From positions 2,170,001 through 2,234,000 of the forward strand of contig OZ287075.1 of the NCBI GenBank assembly GCA_965645245.1: a stretch of 64,000 bases of DNA, in the 5' to 3' direction. Under the pieces are notes generated by a model, which was not told the origin of the DNA, did no database searches, and saw nothing but the letters and a program-made list of their open reading frames with translations. Of this stretch, positions 9,623-38,083 are shown piece by piece; position 1 is the first letter of the stretch, and each line of letters opens with the position of its first letter. A program made the position numbers and the translations under genes. Origin of the DNA: Massalongia carnosa (Eukaryota).

Positions 9623-9625
9623 CTG

Positions 9626-11148: not shown

Positions 11149-11946
11149 CTATCTTGCCAGCTTGTCATCATCGCGTCCATGAAAGCACTGATCTCCTTCA
11201 GGTGCTTGGGGCTTGATATAAAAAACTCCATCGTGCCCATTGTGATTTGGTTGACATACTGAAGTAAGCCATTGTTGGACTTCAGTGGATTACGAGATTT
11301 AATAATCTCAAGAAAGTCTGACAGCTTTGGAATCCAATAGTCATTCATAAACCTGTCACCTCGTTAGCAGTGCTCACGGCGAGGTACAGGTTGTCTCTGA
11401 CGGTGCTTGTAAAAAGCTCAAATAAGTTTTGTCGCCGAAATTTCTTGAGAGTGTATTGTGCGAATACTCTCCAATTTCCAGAAATATATGACTGAGCAAA
11501 AGCGCTCTCATGAGGCGGTCTTTTCATTCCCAGATCAATTCATGAGCGATGGATTTTGAATAAGGGGACATAGTTATGACTAACTAAAACTTGATCGACA
11601 TTTAGCTGGCGCGCTAGTGCTTCGACGCTCATTGTCTCCTCGACAAACACGTCGAAGACTTTCGTACGTATGACCGCCTTCAGAGCTGCTGAGATGGTAG
11701 GCTGCCCTGATGAGAGTTCAAGTCAGTTCCGAGCGTCTCGAATGCAAATGTTCAAAACAACCGCAAGCTTACACCCAAGCTGATCCCACAAGCTTCATTC
11801 TCGACAGGTTGAATCGCAGAAATAAGACCTAGAACAGCGAAAAAAAGGTCCTGGCCTTCATCTTTTAAGGACAAGGAGTTTCTGGATTTTTTGCCTTCCG
11901 CAACCTCATTACCTACCGAGTTCAGAGTAGACTTAAACCCATCCAA
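11149..11946 (-). pseudogene. O-methyltransferase, N-terminal half
   Basis: Fragments resemble the fungal OMT dimerisation region (AVLGLISAIQP.., ISAALKAV.., ELFTSTVRDNLYLA). It ends ...MMTSWQDS at the LTR and continues in frame at 38083. Internal stops present. Confidence 0.7.
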
Positions 11947-12444
11947 GGTTCTATCTCATCTAATATTTACTGCATCCACTGTCAATGACTTATTCCGACG
12001 TGATCAAATACAAGCATTACTTAGTGCTTCTTTCTGAACTAGTCGGGAGTTCTCTAACACTCCGCCAGCTTGCTCGCTCAAGAATCACTCCTAGGAAGAC
12101 TACTATTAAGCTTGATTTATTGATCTAAGCTCTTGGTGATTGTCAGTAGCTTTGCCCTGATATTATTCAGTAGCTATGAACTAGAATTTAACCACAAGGA
12201 AGGAGAGAAAAGAATAATCATCGCTGAACTCCTAAACATAATCTACCGTGACGCGCTAGCCAGTCAAGCGACGCGCGCTACTGCTTAGGCGAGTTAAGCT
12301 CTTCATCCTATCATTTATTACATAACCATATAGCCATAGTCTTATCTATTTCAACAATTATCAAGCAGGAGAAAAAAACTCAAAAATTATCCGCACAAGC
12401 CGACGGCGAAGAGAATATTGCGTTTCTTCAATATTCCACAAATC

Positions 12445-14402
12445 TCAAAAGACTTCAACATCAGGTGTGGTTGGAACAAGTCTCCCATTACCATGCAACG
12501 GAATCGAAGCCCAATTCGAGAAATATCCATCCCTGCCTATACCTTCTGCAAGCACGGGCGTGCTTAACGGGGTACTTTTTGGCGTCGCATAACACACCTT
12601 CTGCAACAAGAAGAACCCTCCATGTCCATCGCCTTCGGTGGTCCAACACCCTTTGTATTTTTTGGATTCTAAAGCAATCTGAACTACGCTTGATTTCACA
12701 ATGTATAGCGTGTTGTCATTCCGAATCCGGCAAGCAGTATTGTGCCATGGGGTGGGTAGATGCAGGATGTCAGTCGTGTTTGGCGACCTGAATCCATCAA
12801 GCGACTCGACAGCTTTGCAATTATCCGACGACAGAAGGCGTATCCCAAATTTAGGTCCATCGTTCTTGTGTCTGGAATCGGAGTTAATATACTGATATAT
12901 CTGCCAGTCATCAGCCGATGACTTACGCGTGTATAGACAAGCGGATATGACATGGAAAGAGTAGTTCTATCATATTCGAGTACGCTTGATTTCTCTGTTG
13001 ATACGAGATTAGCTCTCAAATTCGCCATCTTCATGATCGCTGTTTGAGGCCAGTTCGTGTGGAAACTCACCGAAATCATCTCGAATGCCACTTCCGATGA
13101 AAGTTTCTTGCATTTATTCTTGGAGAGACCGATTGTCCGTTCATGCGCTGCCAAGTCCTCTAACATGAACCTCGAAAATCCCCGATACAAAGCAAGAATC
13201 GAGCTTTCCTGGCTGCTGATTCGAGATCTCAATGCATCGTTTTCAATATGGCAGCTAGCCATCAGGACCTTGCGATCTACTTCCGCTTCCTCAGCGACGG
13301 GCATCTGAAGAGGATGATTGATGGTCACGTCAGCCACAAGATCAGGATGAAATCTGCTCCTTGTCTCCTTGTCGGCGAAGAAGATGTCATGCAGAGAGTT
13401 AAACTCAACCCGCTGAACACTATTTTGCTGCTCAATGATGCCCTTGTTGATTTTGGTCAACGCTTCTCCATACTCGTTAACGACATGATCTTTCACGCCG
13501 ACTATTCACAACACCATAGAGTTAGTGCTGTATATTTGAATATCTGATTGTTTCGTATAGATTCGCTACTTACTGCAGTCGGAAAACACATGACCGTCTG
13601 ATACTATAAGAACCTTGGCTCCAGGTTTATACACTTGCTCTATCTCTTTGACAAAGTTGTTGAGACGCCACAAAGCCATCTCCTCACCTTTGTCGGGGCG
13701 TAAGCCGGCAACTTTTCGAGGATTGGACGATTTGCACGGAAAGGCTGGTAAACAGAATTCGATTTGCACATTATGGGCTACGAACCAATGAGCCTGCTGC
13801 TCAAACAGTTCTCGGCCGCCACCACTTCCCCATAAATCATCAGAAGCGATATTTCGGATCGTGTCTTCAAATATACGAGTGACAGCCCGAGAAATGCTCT
13901 TGCTGCAGTCCGTGATTTGCGGAACACCCGCAGACTCTAGCCTTGTTCCGTGTAACAAGAAATACGTGAACCATGCAAGAAACTCTTCGTTCGTTTCTGA
14001 TCCTATTGGATCTTCAAGTACAACGCCAACAACTTGCTGCTCCCCTGGCCGCTGGACCTCGGAAAAGCAAAGGTTCATGGGGTGTGATCCTAAGGTCGCA
14101 CCGTTGTTGCTGTTTTGAATATCGTTATGGCTGCATGGGGATTCTACCTTGTGATTGAAATGCCATATGAGTTTCCAGGTGCTGGCCACGAGGAAGATCG
14201 CTTTAGGTACGTCTTGTCTCGAACCTGGTTGGGCGTGGTTTCCCTTGAGACTAGATATGATATCCGGCCAAGCTTCTTTTACTTGCGTTGCATGTTGTCC
14301 GTTAATGTGCAGGAGTGTGCCATCAAAGCTGCGGGCATATACAGCATGGATTCGGTGATAAATAGAAGGACCTTGGTTTGTGGACTTTATTTGTGATCCC
14401 AT
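12445..14402 (-). CDS. DIT1: Isocyanide synthase, DIT1/PvcA family (spliced)
   Basis: Motifs FCLPAFPCKSSN, PDKGEEMAL, IVSDGHVFSDC, RNQAYSNM..IRLSIHAH..GPKFGI and LHLPTPWHN. Introns at ~13573-13502, 13070-12995 and 12926-12872 have GT-AG ends; a further in-frame intron is possible near 14150-14210. Confidence 0.85.
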
Positions 14403-15426
14403 GCTTATGTGTTATTGCTTGATTTGAAAGATAATGGGGGCAGCTGTATGTTATTGAGTTTGAGTTCTTGCAGAATCAGTGCATTGCTAGAAGGTGGATG
14501 CAGCTTCTCTTATACATCATTTCAAAGTCTCCCCGGCGAATTTGGAGCACAGTCAACCGTCATTAGGTCCCACAGGTTTCCATTTGCATCACCAGCAAAT
14601 ACTTTTCCTCGTTTGGGAAGTTGATCAGCTCCAGCAGATCCCTTACTAATGATATCGCATATCGTACCTCCATTGTCACAGCACTATCGACGATTACTAG
14701 CCGCACAATGTTCTCATGATATTATTGTTGGATCCTCGCTGGACGGCTAGTGTGAATTGTGCTAGATGATTAAGTGGGAGCAATACATTTTGCGCACATG
14801 AGGAAGTCGATCCCATTCTTACATCACCTTGCAATTGAGACAGCTCACTATGCTTGTGACCTTGTCCGTAAATCTGACCAACATGAATGCTACATTGCTA
14901 GGATTCTCGCTAGCTATGCAGATCGCCTTATAGCATCATCGGGGAAGCTGGTTCAACGAGTCTTTCAGTAGCATCATTTATCGGCTTGAACAAATCGATA
15001 CTCTTCGTGATAGCGGGCCGATCTCGGTGGTTTGATGGGCCCACAAAGTTCACATATACTTCAGCTCGAAAATCTTTGGTTCTTGCTTTGTAAAATGACA
15101 TGGCCGATCAAATATTTGATGGAGAGCTCGCATCAATAGTAAGCCGCTCTCTACACACGCGCACGCGCAGGTTTTTGGGCATTGGGGGCTCATTTTCGTG
15201 GATTCGTCACAAATATCTCAAACTCGCGCATGTGGCACAAGTGGCGTTCTACCAGATCAACATGGGACGATGAGTCTTCATTGCGAGTCTTTATTGTAAG
15301 CCTGGGTCTGAGAAGATCCATCCTAGAGACGTAGAGATCAGGCCGTGGACGATAATCTGCTCTCTTTCAATCGTGTCTTTTCAATTCTATCAAACGTCAT
15401 TGTTGCAAACAGAACACTTGGCGATC
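14403..15426. promoter_or_regulatory. Divergent intergenic region shared by the DIT1-like and DIT2-like genes
   Basis: Head-to-head starts at 14402 (-) and 15427 (+), as for yeast DIT1/DIT2. No specific sites assigned. Confidence 0.55.
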
Positions 15427-17109
15427 ATGATGCTTTTACTGGGATCTGTGTGGGCTGCGGCAATGGTGGTCTATTTCTGTCTTCTTCCACCAAGTCGGTT
15501 TCCCAAGATCATACCGGCCATACCTTTTTTCGTCTCCCTCCTACCTTTTTTCAAAAACGTGGATCAGGCAGAGATTTATCGCACGTATCTGGAAAAGCCA
15601 TTGGCACATCATGGCGCGGTGAAGGTCTTCTTTGGCGCAAGATGGAACATTCTAATCACACGTCCCGAATACGTAGCCGAGATGTTTGGAGACGAAGAAA
15701 CATTCGCAAAGAGCGGCAATCAAAAGAAGATTCCGCACAGTGTTCTCGCCGAGTATACTGGAGACAATATTATCAGTTCTCATGGAGCAAATTGGCGGTT
15801 GTATCAGGGTGTCTTGAAGCCTGGCTTGTTAGCAACCTTTGACGTCGAGCCTATACATAGCAATGCAATCGCATTGTTGCACTTGTTGCGGATTGAGCGA
15901 GGACTCGAGGAAACGCATGGCGTGGTTGTGCCAGAGCTTTTTCAGCGATATACCTTGGCGAATCTTGCCCAAGCCCTTTTATCCACCGACTTTCAAGTGA
16001 GGTGTCACGGACACAACATCATTTGAGATTGTGCGTTCGTGCTCTGACCAACTTACAGACGCTTGAACGGCCAGATGCCCCGCTGCATACCCTTCAACTT
16101 GCTGTCAAACGAGAGATCTTCAAGCCTATCTTCCTCAACTTTCCATTCCTCGATCGTCTCCCCGTCCCCAGCAGAAAACGGGCTAGAAAGCTTGTGCAGT
16201 CATTTACTGACGAATTGTGCCGAAATATCTGCGATGGTCAAAGGCAAAGGCACCCTAGTCTCAACGGGTCCACTGAAACGCTGGCAACCCGAATGATCAT
16301 GGCACGAGACGGCGGGATATGGTCCGAACAGCAGTTCCGACACAACATGATCAGCGTATTTCTTGCAGGGCACGAGAACCCACAGCTTCATCTTACGTCC
16401 ACGATGTACCTACTCGGAAAGCATGAAGTGCGGATTCAATAAGCGCGGTTATGCCTTATTCGACGCTAACTCGCGGGTATGCACAGGATTCGCAGCAGCG
16501 GTTGCGTCGGGAGGTGCAATCCCTGAGCGACATCAGTTCCGCGATCGCCGACGCCCCCAATCTCCCGTACTTGACATCGGTACTCTACGAAAGCCTGCGG
16601 CTCTTCCCACCCATCTCGCAGCTCCTGAACCGCCGAACCTCCCGGGACGTCTACCTAGGTGGACATATCCTGATTCCTAAGGGCACGTACGTCGGCTACA
16701 ACGCGTATGCTACAGGCCGGGACAAGCAGGCCTGGGGCGCCGATGCCGATGAATTCCGGCCCGAACGGTGGGGCACCACCGTGGCGGAAATCCAAGGCCG
16801 CTACCGCCAGGCCAACCGCCGTGGCGAGTTCATTGCGTTTCACGGCGGTCGCCGGGCGTGCTTGGGACAACGTTTCGCGCTCTTTCAGATTCGCATCACC
16901 TTGATCGTGCTGCTTTGCGCGTTAAAATGGTCTATCGATCCCGCGTGGAAGGAAGCAATGACTCCGGTACGTGAGGCTCCGTCGCCGAACCTAGGAACAT
17001 CTGTTATTTGTGTCATGAGAATTGATCTTTGCAGTCGCTGACTAGTCACTGCGATTAGGCTGGTCCTCTTTATCCTCGTCAACTGCGTTTGATTTTAAAA
17101 GATCTGTAA
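15427..17109 (+). CDS. DIT2: Cytochrome P450, CYP56/DIT2-like (3 introns)
   Basis: N-terminal membrane anchor, FAKSGNQKKIP, I-helix FLAGHENPQL, ESLRLFPP (ExxR), FRPERW, heme motif FHGGRRACLG. Introns at ~15997-16058, 16428-16486 and 16967-17078. Confidence 0.85.
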
Positions 17110-17260
17110 TTACGACAGGTTAGATTGATTTCCATTTGGTTATTACATAAGATAAGCAATAACGTTGTAGAGTGGAGCGTGATGCAAATTAGCTATTCGG
17201 AAGTTGGTTTGTCCGACGGAGGCTTGGTAGTTTACAGAGTACGAAGTAGTCCTTTTCCTT

Positions 17261-17492
17261 TAATCGTCGGCCTCGCTTAGCTGCCTCCCTACGAGGTGTA
17301 CCACCTCTAGTCGGGGAAGCAATCTGCGTAGTTTCAATTTCAGGATTTGTCCCAAATTCACCAATTTTATCACCTATTTTGAAGCTTTTTGCGACACTTC
17401 TCGATCGGAACCTACGACCGTTAGCTGTTTTTATTCATATCATAGATAAATATCAACTGCACATCCTAACTACTCATTGATTAATCGGGATA
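17261..17492 (+). repeat. Left arm of a diverged ~230-250 bp inverted repeat (partner ~23669-23919)
   Basis: TAATCGTCGGCCTCGCTTAGCTGCCTCC..ACGAGGTGTAC...TTTGCGACACTTCTCGA aligns with the reverse complement of 23669-23919. Confidence 0.75.
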
Positions 17493-17762
17493 TTCATTTT
17501 TATTCAATCGCGACCGATCAGTTGCATGCCTCCTATTTCGTCAATCATTCTCTCCCTATTTCATCAACCGCTCCCCACCTCAATCATGAATAGCAGCAGC
17601 GTCATGAATAAGAATCTTATTTGTTGGAACTGTGACTGCAACAGGCGGAATGGTAGCACTGGGCAATTGATATGACTAGTTCGACAAACGAGTTCTTGCA
17701 CATGCAAAACAAACTGGGAGAAACGATTGACTTTCTACCACTACGTAGGGTAAAACTGCTCC

Positions 17763-17933
17763 TGTAACGGTTCGACCATGCGTGGTGCGGACGGCAGGAC
17801 CTACAGCGAACATAGCAGGAGTCCCAGTTATAGTAGAATAGAGCTTGGTCTGCGGACTAAGTATTGTGCCTTTTGGTCGGGAAGGACAGATGGCGCAATG
17901 GTAGAAATCTATTCACTATCTCGCTTCGTCACA
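17763..17933 (-). mobile_element. Solo LTR family 1, TSD GCTCC
   Basis: Reverse complement of 3394-3562, with GCTCC on both sides. Confidence 0.9.
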
Positions 17934-18487
17934 GCTCCTATTTCTGCCTGTCCACCAGTGATTCCAGAAGCTTACATTTCCATCTCATCGGTTCCCTCTT
18001 CCGATGCGAGTTCTGACTTCATACAGATTTGTCACCGCCATAAGCCTTTCCGTGCCGAGGTAGATGCAAATTGCTTTGTCAGCTGGTTTCGGTACTTGGC
18101 ATCGGTTGCCGTTTTAACATTTTTAAATCAATGATTCTATTGCAACGCGCGTATAAAATGCTAAGTAGTTTTTAATAAAAACTTCCAAGAAAAGTATCGT
18201 TTGCGCTGCTCGAATCTTCAATCTCGTCGACATCACTATATACAATTCAATTGAACGTGAAAAGACGCTGCCGAAGAAAATTGAAGAATAGAACAATACT
18301 AAAGAAGCATCAGGTCAAAGTCATTCACGAATTTATTCGGTCTCTGATTGCGTATGACATTCAATCTACTCATAAAGTGATATTTGTGACGAAGCGAGAT
18401 AGTGAATAGATTTCTACCATTGCGCCACCTGTCCTTCCCGACCAAAAGGCACAATACTTAGTCCGCAGACCAAGCTCTATTCTACTA

Positions 18488-21400
18488 TGTTGAGGATAGC
18501 CGAGATGTCTGCTTATAGAAAATGGCACTAACCCCAATGCGCACTAGCTATTGGAAGTATTTGGATTGGCCACCTTGGGATTTATCATCAACATCCCGCG
18601 TCTGATATTCTAGGAGACATTCGAATATTCTACAGTGGATTGATAATGAGGCAAATATGTCAGCTTTGGAACTCCGACAAAGACGAGCTTACATATCAGC
18701 ATTTGACTGACCGATCACATAGAAAGTGGGAGAATCGTGCTCAAGGCAGGCAGCGGTATATAATGGGCTATATGCCCCCATAGATAGCCTCAGTCATTTT
18801 CAATCAATCATTAGTAGCCTGCCATTGGATCAGCTTGATCATCGCACGTACTTTTTGCTGTTGTTTCCTACTTCCACCCCTATAATCCGTAGCCTCCGCA
18901 ACAGGTTATGAGCCCGGTCAGCCAATAGGAAAAACAGTCTGAAAATCGACTCGAAATGTCTTCATCCACCCCTCAACAAACGCCCGGCCCCGAAATCGTG
19001 GTCAAGGATAGATCAGATGGGGCCGACGGTCGGATCACGTCCGGAGCAGGGGTAAGGGATGTTAAAGTTCCCAAACTAACCGAGGAAAATTATCGTACAT
19101 GGAGTAAGATAATGAAGAATAACCTGATAGGTAAAAAGCTCTGGAGCATCGTCATTGGACGAATAGTATGCCCGGACGAGACTCGGCCCAGTGATCTGGA
19201 AGCATGGGAATTTAACAATGCTACGGCCATGACATACATCATGACGGCCGTAGATGATAGACAGCTTCAACACATCATCCGATTGGACACAGCCAACGAT
19301 CAGTGGGAGACACTAAATCGTATTCATAGGGATATCGGACTGACACGCCTTATACCTCTTTCTAGACGGCTTTGTGGTTACAAAGCCGGCCCATCAGACT
19401 CCGTTGAGCAAATAGCTTCGGAGCTACGAACCATTGCTGCTGTAATGGCCGAAATTCGACCCGGGGAGGAACCGTCGGAGTTTCTTCTAGCTCGAATATT
19501 GATGGATTCAATTGACGGGACCCCGTACGCCATGGCTAGGGCCCTGTTGGAAGACAAAGGAGAAATAACCATGACCATGGTTATAGAAAAGTATAAGGAG
19601 GTGGAATCAAGAAATAAAGATGAGATAAGCACCCCGGAAATTGCTAATAAGGCCTCATCTAGCCGAAAATTCACTGGAAAATGTTTCTATTGTGATAAGG
19701 CTGGCCACATAAAAACAGACTGTTTTCAATGGTTGAAAACGGATGAGGGCCGAGAGCACAAGCGGAAAAATGAAAATGCTTATCAAACCAATGATAGTAA
19801 GAGGCGGGGGAAATCATCAGGGAGTCGGGGCCGAAAAACGAAGAAATCGGACGAAGCACGACTGACCCAGGAGAATGATGCCCGATCTGAAGAAAGCGAC
19901 TCGGAATACGCCCGTGCGGCTACCGAAGTCGAAGATTTTGGCCTGATGGCTCAAAATAAGGACGCGGTCCCTGCTCAGGAAGAATTTGCCATGGTGACTC
20001 GAAACGATGACGCGGTCCCACTCGAAAAACTCAAGGAATGGGTTATTGACTCCGGAGCGAGTCGACATATGACCCCTGATAGGGGAATATTCGTCAACAT
20101 GATGTTGATTAGAACGACAGTGCGTGTGGCCGACGGAACGGTCATCTCGTCAATTGGTCGAGGAGATATTCTCATTCGGATGAGAAACGGGGAGAAAATA
20201 CGATTAACCGAGGTGTTATACGTCCCCGAGCTCGACACCAATCTTCTGTCCATACGAGCTCTTCAGACAAAGGGAATTTCTGTCCGCTTTGGTCTGAATG
20301 GAGTCGAAATAACCCGAGGGGATGCCTTACTGGCCACGGGAGTCCTGATTGGATCGTCGTACTTATTGAGGCCTGCCAGAGAAGATGTGGCCCTAGTCAC
20401 CGACATGATAACGACGAAGAAAAAGCATATTCCGAATCCGAATCGGGACGGATATCTTTTGTGGCATGCCCGAATGGGTCATGTCGGACCAGGGAGGCTT
20501 GAAAAGCTCCCATTTCTGACCACCGGAGTCGGAAATTCAATAAAGCATCAGCATGATGGCGAAAAATGCGTCACCTGCAAATACACCAAAATGACGAAAA
20601 TAATCAGTCGAATGCCCCCATTAAAAGCCACACGCCGGGGGGAACGTACATACTCGGACTATTGGGGCCCGTACAAAGTAATGAATTTACAGGGGTCCCA
20701 GTATTTTTTATCATTCATTGACGACTACACGCGTCGGTCAGAGGTGTATTTCGGGCCCAGATCAAGCCTGAGGGAGAATTTCTATCGATACAAAGCGAAA
20801 TTCGAAGCCGAGACAGGGGAAAAACTGGCCCTGATTAGGAGCGACAATGCCAAGGAATATCATGCTCTGAAAAAAGACCTTTTGAATGAAGGCATTCTGA
20901 TGGAATTTACTGATCCGTACACTCCCGAGCAAAACGGGGTCGCTGAGCGGATGAATCGGACACTAATGCAAATGGTTAGGGCCATGCAATTATGGGCCGG
21001 ATTACCCAGAGAATTTTGGGGGGAGGCCCTGATGGTAGCCAATTATTTAAGAAATCGGCTACCAACGAATACTCACGGGGGAAAAATGACCCCGTATGAG
21101 GCCTGGTATGGCCGAAAACCGGACCTGAATCACATACGAACCTACGGATGCTTTGTGCATGCCCGTATCCCCAGTGAAAAAAGGGATAAAATGGATGTCG
21201 TGTCATTTCAGGGAATTTTTGTTGGTTATCATTCGTCGAAACAGTATCGAGTCTATAACCCCGTTACGAAGAAAATCGGCTGGCATGCGGCCCCCGAATT
21301 CTTCGAGGACTGGCCCGGAGGGCCGTTATTGAATGCTCCGAGCCGGGCTGGGACTAGAGATTATTGGTTAGAAATGAGGGGGGAACATACATCGGTCATT

Positions 21401-21910
21401 TGGCCCATGGTCCTGGGGACGGGCCCCGGAGACGACACGGATAGTCGAGGATATGCGAGGGCATGAAGTTATTCAGACATTCTCGGAGTGGGAGTGTTGA
21501 GGATAGCCGAGATGTCTGCTTATAGAAAATGGCACTAACCCCAATGCGCACTAGCTATTGGAAGTATTTGGATTGGCCACCTTGGGATTTATCATCAACA
21601 TCCCGCGTCTGATATTCTAGGAGACATTCGAACATTCTACAGTGGATTGATAATGAGGCAAATATGTCAGCTTTGGAACTCCGACAAAGACGAGCTTACA
21701 TATCAGCATTTGACTGACCGATCACATAGAAAGTGGGAGAATCGTGCTCAAGGCAGGCAGCGGTATATAATGGGCTATATGCCCCCATAGATAGCCTCAG
21801 TCATTTTCAATCAATCATTAGTAGCCTGCCATTGGATCAGCTTGATCATCGCACGTACTTTTTGCTGTTGTTTCCTACTTCCACCCCTATAATCCGTAGC
21901 CTCCGCAACA
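18488..21910 (+). mobile_element. Copia-type LTR element lacking RT/RNase H; 416-bp LTRs (18488-18903, 21495-21910), TSD TACTA
   Basis: TG...CA LTRs with only one difference noticed, PBS GGTTATGAGCCC at 18904, purine tract before the 3' LTR, TACTA on both sides. Confidence 0.95.
18956..21466 (+). CDS. Gag-protease-integrase polyprotein (836 aa), no RT
   Basis: CFYCDKAGHIKTDC knuckle, WVIDSGASRHM protease, LWHARMGH, integrase D-D-E (SDYWGP, RSDNAKEY, QNGVAERMNRTL). No YxDD motif. Confidence 0.9.
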   Translation: MSSSTPQQTPGPEIVVKDRSDGADGRITSGAGVRDVKVPKLTEENYRTWSKIMKNNLIGKKLWSIVIGRIVCPDETRPSDLEAWEFNNATAMTYIMTAVDDRQLQHIIRLDTANDQWETLNRIHRDIGLTRLIPLSRRLCGYKAGPSDSVEQIASELRTIAAVMAEIRPGEEPSEFLLARILMDSIDGTPYAMARALLEDKGEITMTMVIEKYKEVESRNKDEISTPEIANKASSSRKFTGKCFYCDKAGHIKTDCFQWLKTDEGREHKRKNENAYQTNDSKRRGKSSGSRGRKTKKSDEARLTQENDARSEESDSEYARAATEVEDFGLMAQNKDAVPAQEEFAMVTRNDDAVPLEKLKEWVIDSGASRHMTPDRGIFVNMMLIRTTVRVADGTVISSIGRGDILIRMRNGEKIRLTEVLYVPELDTNLLSIRALQTKGISVRFGLNGVEITRGDALLATGVLIGSSYLLRPAREDVALVTDMITTKKKHIPNPNRDGYLLWHARMGHVGPGRLEKLPFLTTGVGNSIKHQHDGEKCVTCKYTKMTKIISRMPPLKATRRGERTYSDYWGPYKVMNLQGSQYFLSFIDDYTRRSEVYFGPRSSLRENFYRYKAKFEAETGEKLALIRSDNAKEYHALKKDLLNEGILMEFTDPYTPEQNGVAERMNRTLMQMVRAMQLWAGLPREFWGEALMVANYLRNRLPTNTHGGKMTPYEAWYGRKPDLNHIRTYGCFVHARIPSEKRDKMDVVSFQGIFVGYHSSKQYRVYNPVTKKIGWHAAPEFFEDWPGGPLLNAPSRAGTRDYWLEMRGEHTSVIWPMVLGTGPGDDTDSRGYARA

Positions 21911-22147
21911 TACTATAACTGGGACTCCTGCTATGTTCGCTGTAGATCCTGCCGTCCATACCACGCTTGGTCGAACCGTTACAATATTTGCTGTCATTTA
22001 GACCCTGAAACATGCTCAAGATGCAGAATTCAATGACTCATATCCGCGGTGATTTAGGCAATAATAAAACGACATTGACCTACACAAGATAAAGACCAAG
22101 CCGTTAATAGTTGTTCGATATACTCCGGTTCAGGAGTCAGATATGAG

Positions 22148-22299
22148 TACGCCGCGCAACGGGTCGGGTTTCTCTACTAAAATCCCAACCCGTTTATGGC
22201 TAACCTCATAATTTTTGGTTTCCGGGTTGAGTTTGAAAAGAGATACCCTGTAGCGAAAAAGCAATTTTATGGCGAAATCCCAACCCGTTGCGCGGCGAA
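22148..22299. mobile_element. MITE with hAT-like TIRs, 8-bp TSD GAT(A/G)TGAG
   Basis: TACGCCGCGCAACGGG...CCCGTTGCGCGGCGAA. The TIR shares TACGCCGCG with the hAT at 27472. Confidence 0.75.
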
Positions 22300-22423
22300 G
22301 ATGTGAGATAATGATAATCTACGAGTAATAAAAGATGATTCTATTCGCGAGCAGACGATCTTCATAACTTTTGATAAGAATATTAAAAATAATTAAAATG
22401 AGCAGTTTAAATTTTTTCAAGAA

Positions 22424-25865: not shown

Positions 25866-25880
25866 TATTGCTCTCTCGTT

Positions 25881-26527: not shown

Positions 26528-26637
26528 TGTGACGAAGCGAGATGGTGAATAGATTTCTACCATTGCGCCACCTGTCCTTCCCGACCAAAAGGCACAATAT
26601 TTAGTCCGCAGACCAAGCTCTGTTCTATTATAACTGG
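26528..26637 (+). mobile_element. Truncated solo LTR family 1 (first 110 bp only)
   Basis: Matches family 1 up to TAACTGG and then switches to family 2. The remainder is not found downstream. Confidence 0.85.
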
Positions 26638-27318
26638 TGTCACGATTCTACTCGGCACGACCTCGGCACCGCCTAGGGCAATCGTTGATGGAAAATGCAG
26701 GCACTTTGGATTTCGTTCCCGCAGCTACTAGAAGATTCCATGACGACTATATCACATGGGTAATAGCGCAGAAGAGGATATATAGGAGCAGGTTCTGGTT
26801 GTCGATTGTCTTTTTCCTTCTTCATCTTGATTGTGTTCGTTTCTAGTGTCCCTATGACTTGTGTCAGGGGAAGGCTGGAGAGATACAAGACTCTATCTTG
26901 CAGAACGGATATCTAGATATGCTAAAACTAGAAGTTGAGAATAATACACAAGACGTCCGATGAAGAGCTCTAAACACCTGGGAAACCACATAGACTTTAT
27001 AGCCATGGCTTTCAACTCTCCTATTCTCGACTTGCCCCATCTCTGTTCCTATACTAATTTCCTTAACATGATTGCTTTGACCTATCCCGCCTTTATCTGT
27101 GCTGAAGCACTCTCAGTCATAACCCTGGATAGTAGAGACGTTGAGATTGGAATACGGATTGTAGGAGATTGATAGTGCGCTGAGGGTAGCAGAAGAACGC
27201 CTGAGCACGATGGGTGAGGTTTCACAGCAATGGGCCCTGTTAAATACTAATCCGATCAGGACAAGCGGGAGGGTGCGAAGCGATTCCGTGACAACTTGTC
27301 TCTAGGTAGATCATAACA
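26638..27318 (+). mobile_element. Solo LTR family 2 without matching TSD, interrupted by a family 3 solo LTR
   Basis: TGTCACG...CATAACA with flanks ACTGG and TGAAC. Confidence 0.8.
26862..27293. mobile_element. Solo LTR family 3 (432 bp), TSD ACTTG
   Basis: TGTCA...TGACA ends, ACTTG at 26857 and 27294. Confidence 0.8.
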
Positions 27319-27471
27319 TGAACGACTTGACTTATTTATTGATTCATGTGAAATTCTTCTCTTTTATCAGTTATCTGCATATAAAGAACACGAATAATCA
27401 ATCAAGATCTAACGATTCAGAATAAGATAAGACTTGAGAAATGTTGAATATTCAAATCTTATTAATACAAT

Positions 27472-30400
27472 TACGCCGCGGAATGGGTTGGGTTGGGTTA
27501 TCGTTGGGTTACCCAACAGAAAAAATCTGCGAGTGTAAATGATGACTACTAGCAACTACCACAAAACACGAATGCAATATTTTTCACATGAGTTAGGATT
27601 TTCAATCATTGTAGATTTAATTTAATGACTATCACAAAGTAAAATGTAGATTATAGATAAAACATTTATTTCGTTGACGTCGAACTACCCTAAAGACTAT
27701 CACAAATTCATATGCTATCTTCTATCGAATATCGAAGTATGTCGCCCATTCATCGCTTCCTATTCAAAACTCGTAAAGATAGTCTCTCGCCATCTCTTCC
27801 TTTACTCTCCACCTTCATGTCACCCCCACCCTCTCCACCCCCCCCCTCCTCTACCTCATCCTCCACCACACCCTCCTCCTCCTCCTCCTCCTCCACCTCA
27901 TCCACTACACCCTCTTCCTCCTCCTCCTCCTCCACGTCATCCACCACAACCTCCTCTATCATACCCTCCTTCACCTCCTCGCTTGATGTAAGCCTACCCC
28001 TTCTTGTGCGCGTTGCAATCCTCTTATTCCCATCGCGTTGCTCGGAAATGGAGTTTCTGTTATTGTAAGTTCGTTTCTTACTTTTCTGTAGAATAATTAG
28101 CTCAAGAAGACACGAAAGTAAGTGACTCGATGCTTACATCTCGCGCTGAGACCTGCTCAACCTGCGATGACCCGATCTGCGTTAACTGGTCCTCGTCATT
28201 GTTAGCGTCTTCTTCATCACTAATGTAGACCTTCTGAAAAACCTGTGTTAGGTCTTCATGTCGCCTTTGCATCTCATTAGTCAAATCCTCAAGACTCATG
28301 CTTTCTTCTTCTTCCAAATCTACGTGTAAACTTGCATCTGCATTCTCCTTCTGATCGTAGAAACGAACTATCATCATCGCGGAGAATGTATCCGGATGAA
28401 AATTCTTGCGATGATCGTAAAGGGCTCCCGCAACGCTAAAAACGCGCTCACATCCAACGCTAGCGGCTGGTACAGGAAGGATGTCCCTGGCAACTATACC
28501 CATTTGTGGAAATTCCGGCTCGAGATATTTCCACTGTTGTAGAATGGGACCCGAACGATCATGCATCGCTGTATATTGTAAATAAGTTGAACACAATGAG
28601 AAAAGACCTGATTTAATGTATCAGTTAACGTACCTCGCTGACGATAGCAGTTGAACTCGTCATCTAGAGCGAGCGGAGTAGCATTATTCGTACTCAGAAG
28701 AAGATCCAGATTATTCAAGTCTCGAATGACCGCGACATTACGCCCGCGTACTTGTGAGGTTTGAGAATTCTCGTAGATATCGAATTCCGCTTCCAGAGAT
28801 TGCCAATATTGATCTTCCCATCGACTTTCCCCATAGGGCGCATCCCAATTGGGACCCTTGAAAATTAGGTCCTTCTTATTGGGAGATAGCAATGCCGCCT
28901 TTCCATATAGATAACCTAATGACCCCTGAGTTTTAGAATAGTATTGACGTAATTTCATTGCAGCCGCCTCGATGCCATTCAATAGCGCACGTTTCCACGA
29001 TACTCGCTTACGAGATAATCTTGCGCGAGCTTGATCCAGATGATCGAACAGCTTATTGTAGATCTCGAACACCTGATGAATGGTCGGTTGCTTTGATTGA
29101 CCAAGCATCTTTGTGAAGACGCAGAATAGCTTCGTTAAATCGATAAGATATTCTATCTGTGACCATTCCACGTCGAGCAATTTCAAATACTCGGCTTCAT
29201 GTTTATCATGATATCTATTCAGCGCTTGTCGCAACTTGAGCGCTCGAATTAACATGTGACATGTGGAGTCCCATCGAGTATTTACATCTTGAAAAAGCTT
29301 AAGTACTGTACCGCTGACCGAGTTTCCAGTGCGTCTCTCTTCGTCATTCAATGCTCGTTAAACAGCGTAGAAGTTCTCCTTACGTAAATTGCTACTGTTA
29401 ATGTAAACAGCTAATGCTCGAACCTAATCGAAATTTAGAACGACTCCCACAACGACTACCACAAAATAAATCTTGCCTTAGCTAGCGTAAGGGGAACTCC
29501 AGGTGTCGGGTTTTCGAAATCCCGTCTATCTTGCTTATCATCCCAGCTAGTTTTGAAATCGGCATTTTTGGGATTAATGTGAATACACCCAAGTAGCTGT
29601 TTCACGGCAAGTTGAATTACATGCGATAAACAAGGCACTCGCTGTATCTCATTAGCATCAGTGTGTAGAAGTGCCAAGGCTCGATTGCTTCGTATCATTC
29701 GTCGCAACTCATCTACCATCGTTGTGTTATTAGATGCACTGTCCGTGGTTAATGCCAAAACACGATCTTCAATAGAATGTCTGATTAAAACGCTGTTCAA
29801 TACTTCAGCAAGTTTTATTCCCGTGTGTGAGCCTTCAACATGTTCGAAGGCAAGAAGCACTTCGTGATAATTCCATTTATCGTCAATGAAGTAAGCATTG
29901 ATGGCCAGATAACCTTGACGATTAAATGACGACCAACAATCCAAAGCCAGAGTGACCTTTGAACTACCCCTAGGTAGCCTCTCGAGTAAAAGCGGAATAA
30001 TCTCTTGACTCCGGGTCATCAAGCGATTCTTGATTGTCGATGGTGAAAAAAACTGTACATTATCGAGCAGACAGTTGAACGCTCTTTGCAATTCGACATT
30101 GGCGACACTTCGTAACGGTAGCCCAAGAGCAACAATCATACGAAGCAATTGAGGCGTGAAATCATCCTTTTTTAGTCTACGCCCGTTGAGAGTTAAGGCC
30201 TCTTGTCTTTTTGCTTCAATCTAATATTGATTAGCAAAGCACGTAATGTGGTAGTCATTTTGGTAGTCATACTTCGGCACGATATCCAACCTTTAAGGAA
30301 AGTTGCTTCATTCCTTTCAATGTCGACGTCTTTTTACAGGACTCGGAATTTAAGTGATTAGTCATGCTGTTATTTCCGGAGCCCAGTGAGGGATGAGTCA

Positions 30401-31278
30401 AGACCAGGGAGCATCGTGAGCAGATTATTTTGGGATTACCATCGCCCACAGTGGCGCCTTCCTGAAACTCTTTCCATTCCGCCGCCTTTCTTTTGGTCGA
30501 TCCCCAATCGATCTTCTTCATCGCCTTTCTACTCTTCTCTTCATTAGCAAAATGCCATCTCGTACTTCGCCACCATTCCATAAACTCCTCGCTCTTCTCG
30601 GCCACATATGCGTAGCATCTGGTGGGTTTGCCCACAACTTGAAGATCGTATATCTCTGAATCCATCATGTGCGAGCTGCTCATTGTTGCGAATGACCAGG
30701 ATTGTATATATAGGATGTAGCAGTAGGAATATAGCAGTAGGAATGTAACTCTATTGACAAGATTATGCTGCGATAAAGCATTAATAACTACGTTTACGTT
30801 CTAAAAACTCAGTCAAATCCAACGCATGCATACATATTCCACCTAAACTAGCCAACCCAACCTAGTCATACTGAACCTAACCCATACCTAACCTAACCTA
30901 GTTGCCACGCGCGACCACTGATAACCTGTCTGCTTGCCTATTTGCTTTTAGATATGACACCGAAGACTCCGCGCAAGCGTACGCGCAAACCTGCGCGAAT
31001 TCCAAACCGAACACTCGACAGAATACCCGGACCAGGTGCCAGAACTGGTGCGATAAGAAAACCAACCACCAGGAAGAGTATGCCTGGTGGTAAGTAGATG
31101 GTATAGTTGAGAATACATAAGATACTAACGCCGATCGCCACGTTGATAAGTCAAGGTTATTGATTACCATTACTAAGCATGTGATTTGGGTAACCCAATG
31201 AAAACCCAACCCGAACCCAACCCAACCCAACAATAACCCAACCCGAACCCAACCCAACCCAACCCATTCCGCGGCGTA
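27472..31278 (-). mobile_element. hAT DNA transposon, TIR TACGCCGCGGAATGGGTTGGGTTGGGTT, 8-bp TSD AATACAAT
   Basis: Perfect terminal inverted repeats, TSD at 27464 and 31279, (AACCC)n subterminal repeats. Confidence 0.95.
27750..30683 (-). CDS. hAT transposase (multi-exon; possibly defective)
   Basis: BED-like CSRC..MTNHLNS, LALDCWSS, LTTDSASNN, CLSHVIQL, DVNTRWDST and the dimerisation motif VPAASVGCERVFS. An acidic poly-E stretch at the 3' end may be the C-terminal exon. Confidence 0.8.
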
Positions 31279-31499
31279 AATACAATGAAAACTTACTAGT
31301 TCAATAAACCTAAAATCTAAAAAATCGTAGATGCCGCACTAGACCTAGTTTCAAGATAAGATAAAGATTATCTCGTTTAATAAAAGATGATCTGTAGTAA
31401 AATAAAGACTGTTGTATAATATTCTTCGTTTTTAATATAAAGATCATACATACACTTATTATTTTATTATGATAATAATGTATTCATACTCCGATATTG

Positions 31500-32110
31500 T
31501 CATTGGCCGTAGGCCGGCCTATGCGGGCAAAGCTATCTAAGTTATGTTACATGGAAACCCTTTTTGAGGTGTAAAAACCATATATCTTGATACCTGTCCG
31601 ATGTGACACCGGGTCGACGTCCGAAAGGACACGCAGAGCGAAAATCATATGAGAACTATGACGCCTCGTGAGATAAGAAGGAAAAGAGAAGTGAAACTAC
31701 TGTTAATTGTACAATATTGTAGATGCCAGTGAGAATTGGGTCAGTAGAACTGTTTCATTAGCCAAGTAGTTAATATCTTTAGAGTTTTTGATGTTTCGGT
31801 CAGCTGTTGATTGTTGTTCGTGCCAGCGGCGTAAAACATCTGTTCTCTATTGTCAATAAGTCTACAGAACATAATTACGTGTTCTGGAGTTTATCTGTGC
31901 CAGCCACATTGGCAGGCCGGTGAGGTGACGGCGGGGACCCGTCGCTGGTAGAGGAAGTCAGCTAGACCGATCTTACCTGTGCGGATCTGTGTTGTTAGGG
32001 CGCTTTCTGCCTTTTTTAGCAGCGTGTGTATTTTCAGTCGTTTTATGCTCAGTGAGACTGATTGCGCTATCAAGGGTTCGGTAACGCGATTTTAATATGC
32101 GCTCCACGAG
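31500..32110 (-). mobile_element. Decayed LINE 3' fragment
   Basis: KKAESALTTQIRTGKIGLADFL..ACQCGWHR*TPEHVIMFC, homologous to ORF 6764-7537. Confidence 0.75.
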
Positions 32111-32527
32111 TCGTTCCAGACTTTCAGCTGTCGTGCTTTAATTATCTGCATTTGTTTTTAACGAGCCAACGCTGCTACGGAGACTTCACGGAGATGCGCT
32201 GGGGAGGTCGGACAATGGTGGGTACTTGTTATTTTATAATTATATAATCATAGTCATATATCTATTTCAATTTAATCAAACCCCGTTACGATGTAATAAA
32301 ATGTAATATTTTATAAATTATGATTTTGAAATTTTTTTAATAAACTCTATTTTCTGACTTAATCAGGTTTTTTTCGTCAACTAATTTTCAATTCTCGAAT
32401 TTATTTGTAAATATTTCAGATTTAATTTCATTGTTTTATCTTCTACGTTATAATTTGCGGTTTCAAAGTCTTCATCTCGATCAAGGGCGCCTACTCACTG
32501 ATTTGCAATCGTTTTCAGCGATTCCTA

Positions 32528-34428
32528 TTATGTTTTCAATAGAGCATCCTGTATGCCCTGATCGATATCCACCCAGAGGTAGAAACCCACCGCGATGAGC
32601 ATAAGTAGGGCGTTCGGAATCATCGGGAATCTCAAGTTGTGAGTGCGATTCTGAATAACACCCTGCACCAGCGGGCTGATCCACCCCGTGGCCAGGTCGA
32701 GCGTAATTTCCAGGCCGAAGAACTGTGCTTCGCGGCCGCGTGGCAGCATCGAGCTGTAAACGACGCGGTTCAGCGACCGCAGCGCTGAACTCGTGCTCAG
32801 AAACAGCACCTGCTCGATCCAGAATTCTGGCCGATGCTTGTAGCCAATTGGCACCCGCCCGTTGATACCCAATGCGCCCCAGAGAACGCAAGTTATGTTA
32901 ATGGCAAGGAAGCCGTACGCCCATGACTTGACCTTGATCCCTGCGCGTGGAAATAAGTACATCCACAAGAGGCTACCCATGGACGCGAAGATGATGGCGG
33001 TGAAGGTCCAAGTGGTATACTCCCCATCGGATTGGCCGAGGCCAAGCGTTTCGCGGAATAATAAGGACAGGACGGAGTTGTGGGCGCTGTAGGCCGTATT
33101 CCACAGGATCCACCCGATGCACAGCTTGAACGCTTCCGGGTAATTTTGGACTGATTTGAGGAGCGAGAAGACTGCCACTGGGATTTAGACAGTGCGACTT
33201 GAAGTCGAGTAAGTACTTACACCTTTTGACGGATAACGTGAGTAGGTTTTGTCCTTCGCGTTGTTTGCCCGGAACCGAGGGAATAACGAAACCTCCTATC
33301 GTTCCAAACACAACGGTCAAACCACCGGCAATGGTAATGGCAAGTAAGAAGCTAGTGATCTATTTAGCATCTCGACCGCTTTTTGTTTCAGGCACAGTGG
33401 CTTACTTGTGATATCCGGTTACCGCAGCTCGTCCTCTTGTATTTGTGATGATTAGTCCAATCAAAAGAGCCGTCAGGCTGCCCACATTGCTGACGAACAA
33501 GCCGAGGACGCTCACGCGCACGCCTTTGTTGAATGCTTCGCTGTTCTCGGTCTTCTCGAGAGCACCACTATCTGCTGTGGACTGGACAGCCTCGATGGCC
33601 TCCACAGCGCGCCCATGCTTCAGCCGTGACCGCTGCTGATACCAACCAGACGCGCGCATAAACAGCGGGATAAATGAGGCTTCCATGGTACCGTACGCGC
33701 CTTGAATGGTCGTCATCAAGCAGAAAAGCACGGATGATGTGGTCAGCACCGAGTATGACTTGTGTGTTAACGCTGCAAACGGAAGTGCCAAAGCACCAAA
33801 CAGCACGATGGTCAGTAACATGAACGATTTGCGATAATCTTAAACACATTAATTAATGCTCTACGGATTCCCCTGAATCAATAATTCAAAACTTACGAGA
33901 GTAATCGGCTATTCCGGAGAGGAAGATAGTAAGAATCCCTTCACACGCTCGAGCAACGGCTTGAAGATAGAGGCTTCACCGTCATCCAAATTAGCAATTC
34001 AGTCTTTCATCCTTAGATCGGCAGGAAACGCACACATAGCTATTGTAATCAATATCTCCGGAACCGAACCGGACCACGCACCGCACAGCGCCACGGGTGG
34101 CACATTTCTTGGAGGTTCCAGGTTGATGGCCGAGGATGTTTGCCATTGCCTGAAGCGAAATCGGTATGTAAGTCGAAACCATTGAGCTTGTAGGTCCTGT
34201 CTACATTTCATTTAGTCAAGGAATTGAAACACTGTCGAATAGCGAGCTAACCGAGTAACATAACAAAAGCCATGAAAAAAACGCTTTTTTAGAGCTCAAC
34301 GGGCCTTCAACTTCCGTCAAATCGTCCGAGTGGACCTTTCTTGGAGACATTAGAACCGCTTCCTCGGTGAGAGTTGAGTCGGGAATGTTTGATGAGAGCG
34401 ACCTAGTCGAAATGTCAATTGTCCGCAA
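32528..34428 (-). CDS. Atg22-like MFS transporter (vacuolar efflux family), multi-exon, start uncertain
   Basis: AFFSWLLLCYS, STYIPISLQ..CVVRFG..IDYNSY, GIADYS..RKSFML and SSMLPRGREAQFFGLEITLD. Multiple hydrophobic segments; GT-AG introns between the ORF pieces. Confidence 0.75.
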
Positions 34429-34975
34429 AGTTTTGAGAACATGTCCGTTTGGTATTCTACTTGAAGAACGAGGTACTTACATGAGTCCCGTTGTCTCAAT
34501 AACAATATCGTCAATAAATAAACCTTACAATAGGATTCTATAGATCGTCGACGTTGTCAGAGTGTTTCGCTTCGATCCTGTCGTCTGATGTCGTGAATCA
34601 GACTTGCGTAAAAGCGACGGGATGCTTAAGACCCAGGCAAGAGAAATAATCAATGCAGATGCCCGAAGATACCCAGATCCGCACTCACACAGTCACGTTA
34701 TAAACATGAAAGGCCTCGTCGTGTGGTGATAGCCAAGCAATGACGATTTGCGCAGAAATGAGCAAGTTTGATATCAGATCGTCCTTGATCGCAAGTCTGG
34801 GTTAGTAACGCGCTTGATTGCCTCATTGACGTGTGCGCATATTCACGCAAGTTTGAGGTCATCATTCTTGTTTGATCACATACGTCACATTCTCGATGAT
34901 CAGTCTCGTATCGATCATGACGCGCTTGAATCCGCTCCCTTGCGATGAGACCTTCCGCTCACCTCAAAAGCGGCG

Positions 34976-36648
34976 ATGCAGAAGCTGAAGCAAGCAAAAG
35001 AAAACAACGTCGACATCATGAAAACTGTGATTTCTCAATCAGATTTGACAAAGGTGGAAAGTGGTCTGGACAAAAAACAGAATTTGTCGTTATCACATCC
35101 CTACAGCGCCTTTTCGAGCCGGCGGAGAACTTTTGTTCTTCTCCTGGTCACAGTCGCCGGTTTCTTCGGGCCGCTTTCTGGGGGAATCTACCTTCCGGCA
35201 CTAAATGTGCTAGCCAAAGACTTCCATGTTTCGAACACGTTGATCAACGTGACTGTCGCCGTGTTTATGTTGGTCTTCGCCATCGGTGTGAGTGTCACAA
35301 TCCTCCAAACAGGCGTCTGAGCTGACGGAATCTTCACTGATGCTTGATAGCCGTTGCTGTGGGCTGGCTTCTCGGATTATCGCGGGCGACGGCCTTTATA
35401 TATTGTATCCTTCGCCGTATTCATCATTGCCAACGTTGCCCTCGCCACAATCCCAGCTCGCTATGGCGCGTTAGTAGGCTTGCGGATGCTCCAGGCTTTC
35501 GGCTCCTGCAGTGTTGCATCACTCGGGGCGGGCACGGTGGCGGACTTGATCGAGCCTAAGAACCGAGCATTTGCAATGTCGGTATTTTTGCTTGGTCCAC
35601 AATTGGGCCCACTTCTTGGTCCGGTGTTGGGGGGCATTTTTGCAGGACAAACGTCATGGAGATGGATATTTGGCTTCTTAGGCGAGCACAAAGCGAATGT
35701 CCATGCGACGAAATATTGACTGATGATTCACAGCGATCGCCAGTTTCATTCTATGGGTATTGATCATTTTCTGTCATCCAGAGACACTAAGATCGCGCGT
35801 CGGGAACGGAGCAGACTATGCAGGCAAGGCCTGGTTTAGCTGGCCGCCGACCTTTCAAAGTGGTATCGCTGAGAAACGTGACCCCACTTCCACGATGCCG
35901 ACGCCTAAGGTTTTCTTTCAGCTGTTTTGCTACCCACCTATCGGCATTGTTTCGGTCAACACGGCCATCTTGTTTTCCAGCTACTACTGTATTGGAATCA
36001 CGCAACCCCGAATTCTGGCCGATCGATATGGCTGGTCGACAACTAAGGTTGGCTTGAGTTACCTAGCTTCAGGTAAGTCTGGTTCACATTACTCAAGTGA
36101 GAGGTCGTCATGACTCAATGCGAGATAAAGGTACCGCGATGATCATAGGGTCTATGACGGGTGGGCGATTCTCTGATTGGAATCGAGCCAAGGCCATCAA
36201 GGCGTCTGTGACAGGAACGGTCAACGTCGAGAGGCGGCTTGGGGATCAGATCTGGGGGGTTTTGATGTGCTCGGCAGGGAATTTGATGTACGGATGGTGT
36301 TGTCAACACCGCATCCATCCCGCCTCCGTCCTCATTGCGACCTTTTTCGCCGGGTTTGGATTAACTTGGGTCTTCGTCACTTCAACTAGTTTCCTGACCG
36401 AGTGCGAGCCCACCCGAGCAGCTGGTGTATTCGCGCTGGGGGGCCTCTTGCGCAATCCTGCCGCAGCATTGGCAGCAGTGATCATCGAGCCCCTCGTGGA
36501 AAGAATGGGTCTAGGATGGTGCTTCACAGGTCTCTCTGTCATCGACTTGGTGATTGTCGGAGGAGGGGTGATTCTCCTGAAAGCGAAGAGTTCAACATGG
36601 CGCACAAAACGTGATCTTAACAATGAATCGGACATGATTAATCGATAG
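34976..36648 (+). CDS. DHA1-family MFS transporter, DTR1-like (3 introns)
   Basis: GFFGPLSGGIYLPAL, WAGFSDYRGRRPLY, LGAGTVADL, GPLLGPVLGG, WRWIFGFL and PETLR. DTR1 orthology is inferred from linkage to DIT1/DIT2. Confidence 0.8.
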
Positions 36649-37559
36649 AAAAGATGCTTTATTTTATCTCCTTCATCTACTGTCATACTACAACTTTACG
36701 GTCACCTAGTCATATTGCTCGTAATTCGCCTCACAACTAGTCGAATCCCGTTATCTGATTGAGAAATCGTTCCCTCGTTAACCCGCTTGACCCGATCGAC
36801 CCGGAATATTTTTATATCAGGTTTAAACGTGTTTTTTAGACGTTTTGAACACATTTAAAATTCTGAAAATACTGAAAATTAGTCGTTGTCAGGACCTGCC
36901 ATAGAGACTACGGAGAAGGATACGGAAAAGGGGCATCAGCATGGACTGGACCCTTGAGCAAGTGGTAGATAGATAGATACCTTAATGCCGGGCGAACTGA
37001 GCCATGAGTAGGTAAGTAGATGCTTTGCGTTCTTCGAAGTTGTCGGCTGTATAATTCTTCCAGTGGATCTTTATGTGCCTGGCTAGCGTCGAATCTCGAG
37101 GTTTGATTGGTTAGTCATAGTCTTGAGATTCTTGTTGATTAAACAGGAAGAGACATTTGATCAGAACTGGATGAACCTGTGACTGGGACTTGATACGGGT
37201 TTTGGGATAGAGTAGGAGAACATGAATGAAAAGATATATAAAAGTACAGCGCCTGCAATCAAGTCATTTTCATTGATTGGATTCCCCGATTTTATTGTCT
37301 GCATTTGTGATCCTCGAGGGATTCGTTCTCTGGGCTATGGAGTAAATCCCGAGCGACCTTGGGGCTCATTCCGATTTCCGGCTTCACGGTTCCCGAACCA
37401 CCGCCTCGATCATGCTATCAATTGCGATTTCGCCTTTCTACGGCGTTGGCGGCGAGATCCTAACGATGCGCAGCCCAGCGCTTTTCAGAACTTCTTTTCA
37501 CTGTGTCTCGCTTCGTTCCATGTCCGAAAAAATTATCATTGAGATATTGAACCCGACGA

Positions 37560-38083
37560 TGATGAGTGTGGCCCCTTGAGTTGCAATCACCTGATCCAGA
37601 ATCACGATACGGGAACGAGGTCCTAGAGCCGAGATGATATTAAGGAGAATCGTGCGGGCGTGCTCGTCAGGTCAGTCATGCAAGACGTGGCGAAAGAGGA
37701 ATACATTTGCATCTACTCCGCAATGGGGAAGGGTCAGCCTGCGGTCATGAGTTGGGGCAACGGTCAGATTCCCGAGAGATGGCATCAGCATCAAGGTGAG
37801 TCGTTAATCTTGCCAGCACGGGTGACTAATCTTTCACTGGCTGAGAGGTGAAGAAATCATAAGCCATGCCCTCAACCCCTTCAATGTTGCCAAGGCCCTG
37901 GATTACCGCCAGAACATTTTGGGAAATCATACGTCCCTTCAGGTCGGGCCGGTGCGCCTGAAAGTTGCGGACCACTGTTCCTTGCCCACCTCCTACATCA
38001 ACAATCAGCACCTCCGCGCTGACGTCGCCGGACGGGTCGGTGTTGATAGGAAAGAGAGACGAAATGGCGGTTTGGGTGCTATC
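37560..38083 (-). pseudogene. O-methyltransferase, C-terminal SAM-binding half
   Basis: VLIVDVGGGQG, MAYDFFTSQPVK and VFLFRHVLHD*PDEHARTIL (HDW mutated to stop). Begins at the CTATC adjoining the LTR. Confidence 0.85.

Follow-up and report, generated by a model that had tools for sequence, protein, structure and literature searches.

Within a stretch of 64,000 nucleotides of Massalongia carnosa (GenBank assembly GCA_965645245.1, contig OZ287075.1, positions 2,170,001 to 2,234,000 of the forward strand), hereafter the window, with positions counted from its first letter, a five-gene metabolite cluster of the dit type was found with its two blocks of genes in exchanged order. The break passes through one of the cluster's own members, an O-methyltransferase (OMT) gene, each half of which abuts a long terminal repeat (LTR) of a Copia retrotransposon. 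The OMT halves are judged from their sequence to be the two sides of one Copia insertion into a single gene, and the split and the block swap to be a derived state, since uninterrupted OMT alleles (P0002 and P0152) exist in relatives. As to how this order arose, we tentatively favour, at somewhat less than an even chance, a model in which the cluster left as a circle and re-entered by a single crossover between its own Copia and an old Copia relic.

The OMT gene lies on the minus strand in two pieces, an N part at 11149..11955, delimited by open reading frames, Pfam, homologue alignment and tblastn, and a C part at ~37390..38083, delimited by homologue alignment. The upper end of the N part is approximate, being set at ~11955 by the reading of the open frames, a weak Pfam Dimerisation match (E 0.004) and a tblastn match at 11517-11404, and no in-frame ATG was found for this part. 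The N part lies on the wrong side of the C part, at a distance of 26 kb; the wrong order of the halves, which had been proposed in the initial annotation of this stretch, is confirmed by the alignment of homologue P0001, residues 1-60 of which fall on the N piece and residues 62-138 on the C piece without a gap, and by alignment A1, in which the junction is crossed gap-free in all five homologues (P0152, P0002, P0006, P0001 and P0004). The target-site duplication CTATC occurs twice, at 11149..11153, where it adjoins the right edge of the LTR that closes at 11148, and at 38079..38083, where it adjoins the left edge of the LTR that opens at 38084. This inward-facing pair beside two LTRs of the same family was correctly described at the outset, and agreement of a 5-mer at two positions set by the LTR ends would occur by chance in about 1 in 1024 cases. 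In minus-strand translation, ...MDAMMTSWQD forms the end of the N piece and DSTQTAISSLFP...VLIVDVGGGQG the start of the C piece, and in A1 the two meet at WQD/DSTQ. The in-frame joining at CTATC that had been claimed also holds, being gapless against all five homologues; the sole repeated residue at the join is a D, encoded by the duplicated GATAG.

P0002, which is encoded on a public contig of 2.43 Mb, matches the C piece at 98% identity and reads MTSWQDSIQTAISSLFP at the junction, and P0152 represents an uninterrupted whole OMT exon (92% and 94-95% identity in A1); the two fall in the same 90% cluster. By Pfam, the single OMT exons gave weak matches only (Methyltransf_2, E 0.023; Dimerisation, E 0.004, in the N part). 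Of the extents first given for the halves, the limit of the C part at 37560 has to be revised, as this part reaches to ~37390 and contains three in-frame stops, because of which the methyltransferase is considered to be dead, a pseudogene. All three stops are in the last part of the gene (37390-37710, minus), where one of them replaces the W of a conserved HDW. In the exon adjoining the Copia only 2 of 85 residues differ from P0002.

The Copia copies which flank the swapped blocks belong to the Ty1/Copia type, with Pfam matches to Retrotran_gag_2, rve and RVT_2 on 38509-41826 in addition to the CTATC duplication; the LTR opens with TGTTG but closes with ...TTCATA and not ...CA, so that the canonical end dinucleotide is inexact. 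What had been taken on the left for an LTR is indeed a Copia LTR, more precisely the terminal part of a Copia fragment truncated on its 5' side (9626..11148, plus strand; Pfam and alignment) which comprises the end of the reverse transcriptase (RT), the RNase H region and the 3' LTR. This fragment adjoins a tandem repeat of 5.4 copies of a 23-nucleotide unit (9498..9622), after which its homology to the right copy begins abruptly. The junction at 9623-9626 is non-homologous, and nothing in the way of microhomology or filler was identified there beyond a possible CTG at 9623-9625. The fragment carries private 1-nucleotide deletions at 9735 and 10645, and has empty sites for both the Gypsy and the pogo insertions of the right copy.

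In the left fragment, the 3' LTR (10860..11148, plus strand, 289 nucleotides), here called A-type, was aligned to the LTR at 38084-38330 and showed 0 substitutions in 246 aligned nucleotides, the two differing by a 43-nucleotide tandem-unit indel and a 1-nucleotide indel. Because they show no substitutions, these two LTRs are the pair of one young insertion, A. The A LTR contains a 21-22-nucleotide tandem unit (10956-11034 versus 38180-38201), present in 3.7 copies in the 3' LTR; the 5' LTR is shorter by 43 nucleotides, roughly two units, and this is the sole sizeable difference between the pair.

The right Copia (38084..50894, plus strand; Pfam and alignment) is a chimera, beginning with the A-type 5' LTR (38084-38330), continuing through gag, integrase and RT, and ending in a B-type 3' end whose LTR (50656..50894, plus strand, by alignment) is followed by AAATA (50895-50899) rather than CTATC. 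Between its own 5' and 3' LTRs only stretches of 43 and 94 nucleotides align, at 84-93% identity. Compared with the left fragment, there are 11 substitutions and 2 indels in an overlap of 1052 nucleotides, the longest unbroken stretch shared by the two copies being 657 nucleotides with 4 substitutions and an indel; the identity then steps from ~99% to ~82% at 50447..50471 (plus strand), and from ~10678/50471 onward the copies differ at 33 of 185 columns. The unlike LTRs and unlike flanks (CTATC and AAATA), together with this identity step, are those of an inter-element recombinant, and on these grounds the right Copia is read as an A/B recombinant, with the left copy holding the A 3' end which is missing from the right. 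Uneven divergence along the element appears to be a trait of this Copia family, in a milder form in its public relatives: in P0288 the upstream part is A-like, with few residue differences (read by eye, not computed), and leads into a B-like C-terminus, and in P0278 the C-terminus is of the A type. Copia Z gave no tblastx match to Copia A. An apparent 1-nucleotide deletion between GKD and KLQQLQ of the RT is common to both copies (9866-9900 and 47722-47756); if this is real, the young Copia sub-lineage would need the proteins of other copies.

In the present arrangement, the A 3' end, the OMT N part, DIT1 and a cytochrome P450 gene are found upstream of an Atg22-like gene, an MFS gene, the OMT C part and the A 5' end. 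The un-permuted order that was originally put forward, Atg22-like, DTR1-like (here the MFS gene), OMT, DIT1 and DIT2 (here the P450), is right by the coordinates. A lone unequal crossover between Copia copies leads to a duplication or a deletion, never to the observed order. Inversions alone were dropped as an explanation, since three would be required, and RNA-mediated copying of the cluster was ruled out, as DIT1 retains intron-like gaps (tblastn with P0155). As a single crossover cannot give the order and inversions need three, the intermediate would be either a circle or a head-to-tail duplication. The starting point is the insertion of a young Copia, A, into the OMT gene of the five-gene cluster, with duplication of CTATC. 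In the circle model, the cluster carrying A would then have closed head to tail to form a circle, and this would have re-entered the chromosome when A recombined with an older Copia relic in a single reciprocal homologous crossover. The target relic would already have been 5'-truncated and would have stood between the tandem repeat and the AAATA flank. The left product of such a crossover would consist of the relic 5' piece, the A 3' end, CTATC and the OMT N part, and the right product of the OMT C part, CTATC, the A 5' part, the relic 3' end and AAATA; the two flanking copies in the window correspond exactly to these products.

A block swap in which orientation is kept requires that the P450 side be joined to the Atg22 side, and this joint must lie within 17.0-32.5 kb, or possibly at 11.96-12.5 kb. 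The spacer between the P450 and the Atg22-like gene (17042..32527) was analysed by means of its repeats and an audit of target duplications; no Pfam family was found in any of 25 open frames taken from it. Matching target duplications are present in 7 of the 7 complete elements audited (three copies of a repeat termed R170, a second Copia element termed Copia2, a hAT element, the Gypsy and the pogo), and also in an eighth audited element, the R170 copy of the left flank. Because of these duplications the complete elements represent simple insertions, and neither the joint nor a wrong assembly join is to be sought in them; for the same reason the assembly is judged to be locally sound. The candidates left for the joint are the R170 copy at 26528-26637, which is truncated, and several repeats without a classification.

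R170 is a solo-LTR-like element of 170 nucleotides (TG...CA) with five copies in the window, four of which have matching 5-bp duplications: the left-flank copy at 3394-3562 (GAAAT) and the spacer copies at 17763-17933, at 25881-26050 and at 18385-18487 plus 21911-21983 (split by Copia2), which have GCTCC, TCGTT and ATATT among them. Very many public contigs pile on R170. Copia2 (18488-21910; LTR comparison and Pfam) has 416-nucleotide LTRs which are 99.8% identical and a TACTA duplication; it contains an 845-amino-acid gag-integrase frame with no RT domain by Pfam on this long frame, and resembles a non-autonomous element that has undergone internal deletion. The hAT element (27472-31279), defined by comparison of its ends (TACGCCGCGG...) and of its 8-bp target duplication (AATACAAT), is accompanied in the spacer by a hAT-like end without a partner at 22148 and by a stretch at 24656 that is ~81% alike and is without the exact end motif.

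Public sequence data were also considered. Five public runs contain part of 11149-17100, and four of these (X2, X4, X5 and X1, with X3 left out) were compared over 14501-34500; in such data contig depth gives no copy number and the uncovered part of a run proves nothing. All four compared runs yielded short contigs which end at repeats, and none bridges the P450 to the Atg22-like gene. The X2 pieces (14501-17286 and 32168-34500) show 0 differences, as do the X5 pieces listed over the unique parts, and X5 is therefore no diverged relative. Run X1 differs from the window at 16184-17286, 18086-18409, 23758-24266, 26114-26533 and 32222-34500, with no differing piece in 14501-15834. In scans of metagenome contigs for related loci, the pattern matches (41 for P0152 and 199 for alignment A2) were in no case confirmed by tblastn.

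The circle is favoured by parsimony if the target Copia was already 5'-truncated, as two events would then be needed versus three for a tandem duplication. The comparison of substitutions points the same way: set against 0 in the LTR pair, the 11 substitutions in the 1052-nucleotide overlap give P = 0.10, and of the 10 coding substitutions in the overlap 6 are synonymous, where 24-29% (about 26%) would be expected (P = 0.015-0.04). This suggests that the overlap compares two different elements and not two copies of A, which fits the circle, and fits a duplication only with the crossover to B placed upstream of 41644. Several points should nevertheless be held against the circle. Both statistics are weak (P = 0.10 and ~0.03), and the apparent GKD frameshift in both copies weakens the synonymous excess as a sign of selection on active elements. 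The relic would have to be ~99% A-like over 9626-10677 and ~18% different thereafter, a mosaic which we infer; a mosaic B-type element of this kind (~99% A-like to ~50470, ~18% different after) is needed by the circle and duplication models alike. The left-copy frameshift at 10645 is only 32 nucleotides before the identity step, which limits the position of the crossover. The head-to-tail joint was not located in the 17.0-32.5 kb spacer, and no circle, empty target site or old-locus scar was seen within the window. Finally, all local junctions are accounted for equally well by a tandem duplication with subsequent deletions. The initial annotation had itself conceded that a tandem duplication would give the same local pattern, and we agree that the two routes are not separable at the local junctions; from its wider reading, the single insertion, the derived swap and the recombinant Copia marks stand, whereas the free circle and the change of locus are retained as a tentative proposal which falls short of being probable.

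By the duplication route, which we consider rather unlikely, a unit of ~32 kb with A inside the OMT gene would have been duplicated head to tail in place and then reduced by two deletions, a non-homologous one on the left running into the middle of the left-unit Copia (junction 9625/9626) and one on the right by homologous recombination between the right-unit Copia and a downstream B-type Copia, removing the N part, DIT1 and the P450. The same three junctions would result, the non-homologous junction at 9626 is of the sort that a deletion leaves, and the sequence differences can be accommodated provided that B was a mosaic and recombined upstream of 41644. The cost is that three events would have to take place before any substitution arose in the A LTR pair, that the left deletion would by chance have to stop inside a Copia of ~5 kb, as otherwise unique sequence would be present twice, and that tandem units usually recombine back to the original order. 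Self-comparison of the window detects the Copia overlap of 1.05 kb and families of transposons but no duplicated unique DNA, and the overlap is more diverged than the LTR pair, which is unexpected for two A copies (P = 0.10). A route of several breaks without a free circle, either a three-break swap by end joining and homology or replicative template switching, is less probable again; a non-homologous junction (9626) in combination with a homologous one (~50470) would suit one-ended homologous repair, but the same head-to-tail joint is still required, no microhomology or filler pattern is apparent beyond the possible CTG, and the scheme is no simpler than a circle.

That the arrangement is an artefact of assembly is improbable. 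The true order would then be C part, Copia A and N part, with the truncated B-type relic at a separate locus, and the assembler would have jumped from copy to copy both within the Copia stretch common to the two loci and within a repeat of the spacer. Both loci so assumed would be simple, and the public contigs over 14501-34500 stop at repeats and leave the P450 and the Atg22-like gene unbridged; against this, three coordinated wrong joins would be needed, the 657-nucleotide shared Copia stretch with its substitutions and indel is easy for long reads, the use of which is suggested by a gap-free 64-kb window across many repeats, and the matching target duplications leave no place for a join inside the complete transposons of the spacer or of the right Copia. 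It is scarcely credible that the OMT halves derive from different paralogues with partners elsewhere, given the identical 5-mer at both LTR edges, the absence of substitutions in the LTR pair, and a join which is residue-exact against all five homologues save for the D encoded by the duplication.

The cluster can be assigned to the dit type as it has a DIT1_PvcA gene beside a divergent P450, the latter being placed as DIT2 by its position. The DIT1 gene, of the isocyanide-synthase family (12544..14390, minus; PF05141 on three frames in 12448-14411), is collinear with residues 1-533 of P0155 by tblastn and looks intact; its best named relatives are from the lichen-forming fungi Pseudocyphellaria aurata (54%) and Sticta canariensis (51%), and lichen metagenome is the label of one public run with part of the cluster. 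The P450 gene lies at 15274..17041 (plus; PF00067 on frames in 15274-17038), the Atg22-like transporter gene at 32528..34476 (minus; Pfam on open frames) and the MFS transporter gene at 34949..36648 (plus; Pfam MFS_1).

The window as a whole is fungal DNA rich in transposons and without gaps over its 64 kb. Nested in the right Copia are a Gypsy element (41817..47677, plus; Pfam and LTR comparison), with 348-nucleotide LTRs 99.7% identical, a TTTGT duplication, a chromodomain and an open pol frame of 1338 amino acids, and a pogo/Tc5-type DNA transposon (47878..49816, minus; Pfam DDE_1 and HTH_Tnp_Tc5), with perfect inverted ends of 105 nucleotides and an uninterrupted transposase frame of 581 amino acids, which was probably active recently; both would be independent simple insertions. 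The flanks consist of transposons, including PIF1-helicase pieces at 3329-5045, MULE and Tc1/mariner pieces, and a Copia-like element at 51472-56258 (minus; Pfam on open frames), and the left and right flanks do not match each other by blastn or tblastx. A fragment with an APH (phosphotransferase) domain stands alone among the transposons at 57228-57656, and is possibly a gene relic.

How fungal metabolite clusters move and are reshuffled is an open question, for which circles have often been proposed and few natural footprints are on record. In the window, the split OMT records the original order to the exact residue and the recombinant Copia copies mark both edges. If the circle model is true, a retrotransposon family would have acted as portable landing pads for gene clusters, and the window would offer a natural instance of relocation by way of a circle in a filamentous fungus. 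A limited literature search, which is not proof of absence, found no report of a fungal cluster moved by a circle. The rearrangement may be neutral, as the rearranged cluster has a dead methyltransferase and lies in a transposon-dense region.

Comparable events have been recorded in other settings. At the cattle KIT locus, Durkin and colleagues reportedly described in 2012 a serial translocation via circular intermediates, in which the permuted order was the footprint of the circle, and the GAP1 circle of yeast, attributed to work by Gresham and colleagues in 2010, is said to be LTR-flanked and to have formed by LTR recombination. Both concern other organisms and neither is a fungal metabolite cluster, and in the case of cattle KIT the source locus is kept and known. 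In wine yeasts (Saccharomyces cerevisiae EC1118 and others), the consulted part of the report on region B, a segment from Zygosaccharomyces bailii, treats circular permutation as the signature of circle integration, its authors also weighing tandem copies which regenerate circles (Galeote et al., 2011; PMC3053389). Like region B, the window has a multi-gene segment in permuted order with a gene broken at the insertion point; unlike region B, where that part of the report describes several permutations at several loci, non-homologous entry and a working replication origin, the window cluster has one permutation in one place, with no second locus seen, and apparently entered by Copia homology (PMC3053389). 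According to Nickles et al. (2023; PMC10153163, as consulted in part), the dit isocyanide-synthase superfamily, which combines DIT1 with a P450 and, in some clans, with an MFS gene, is widespread in Ascomycota; it has in common with the window the DIT1_PvcA gene and the divergent P450; in the portion of that article consulted, the OMT and the Atg22-like gene of the window cluster are not mentioned for the superfamily and the word 'methyltransferase' has 0 occurrences (PMC10153163). For Magnaporthe oryzae, the consulted sections of Joubert and Krasileva (2022; PMC9694575) record LTR retrotransposons and genes on extrachromosomal circular DNA, together with 0 cases of circle-mediated translocation in 306 genomes from a pipeline for permuted order, the reach of which, according to the authors, does not extend to repeats (PMC9694575). 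The case in the window lies inside repeats, unlike those within the reach of the Magnaporthe survey as there described, and would, if confirmed, be a natural example (PMC9694575). The class of event is thus already known, and the present cluster would add to it an example with an unusually clean marker.

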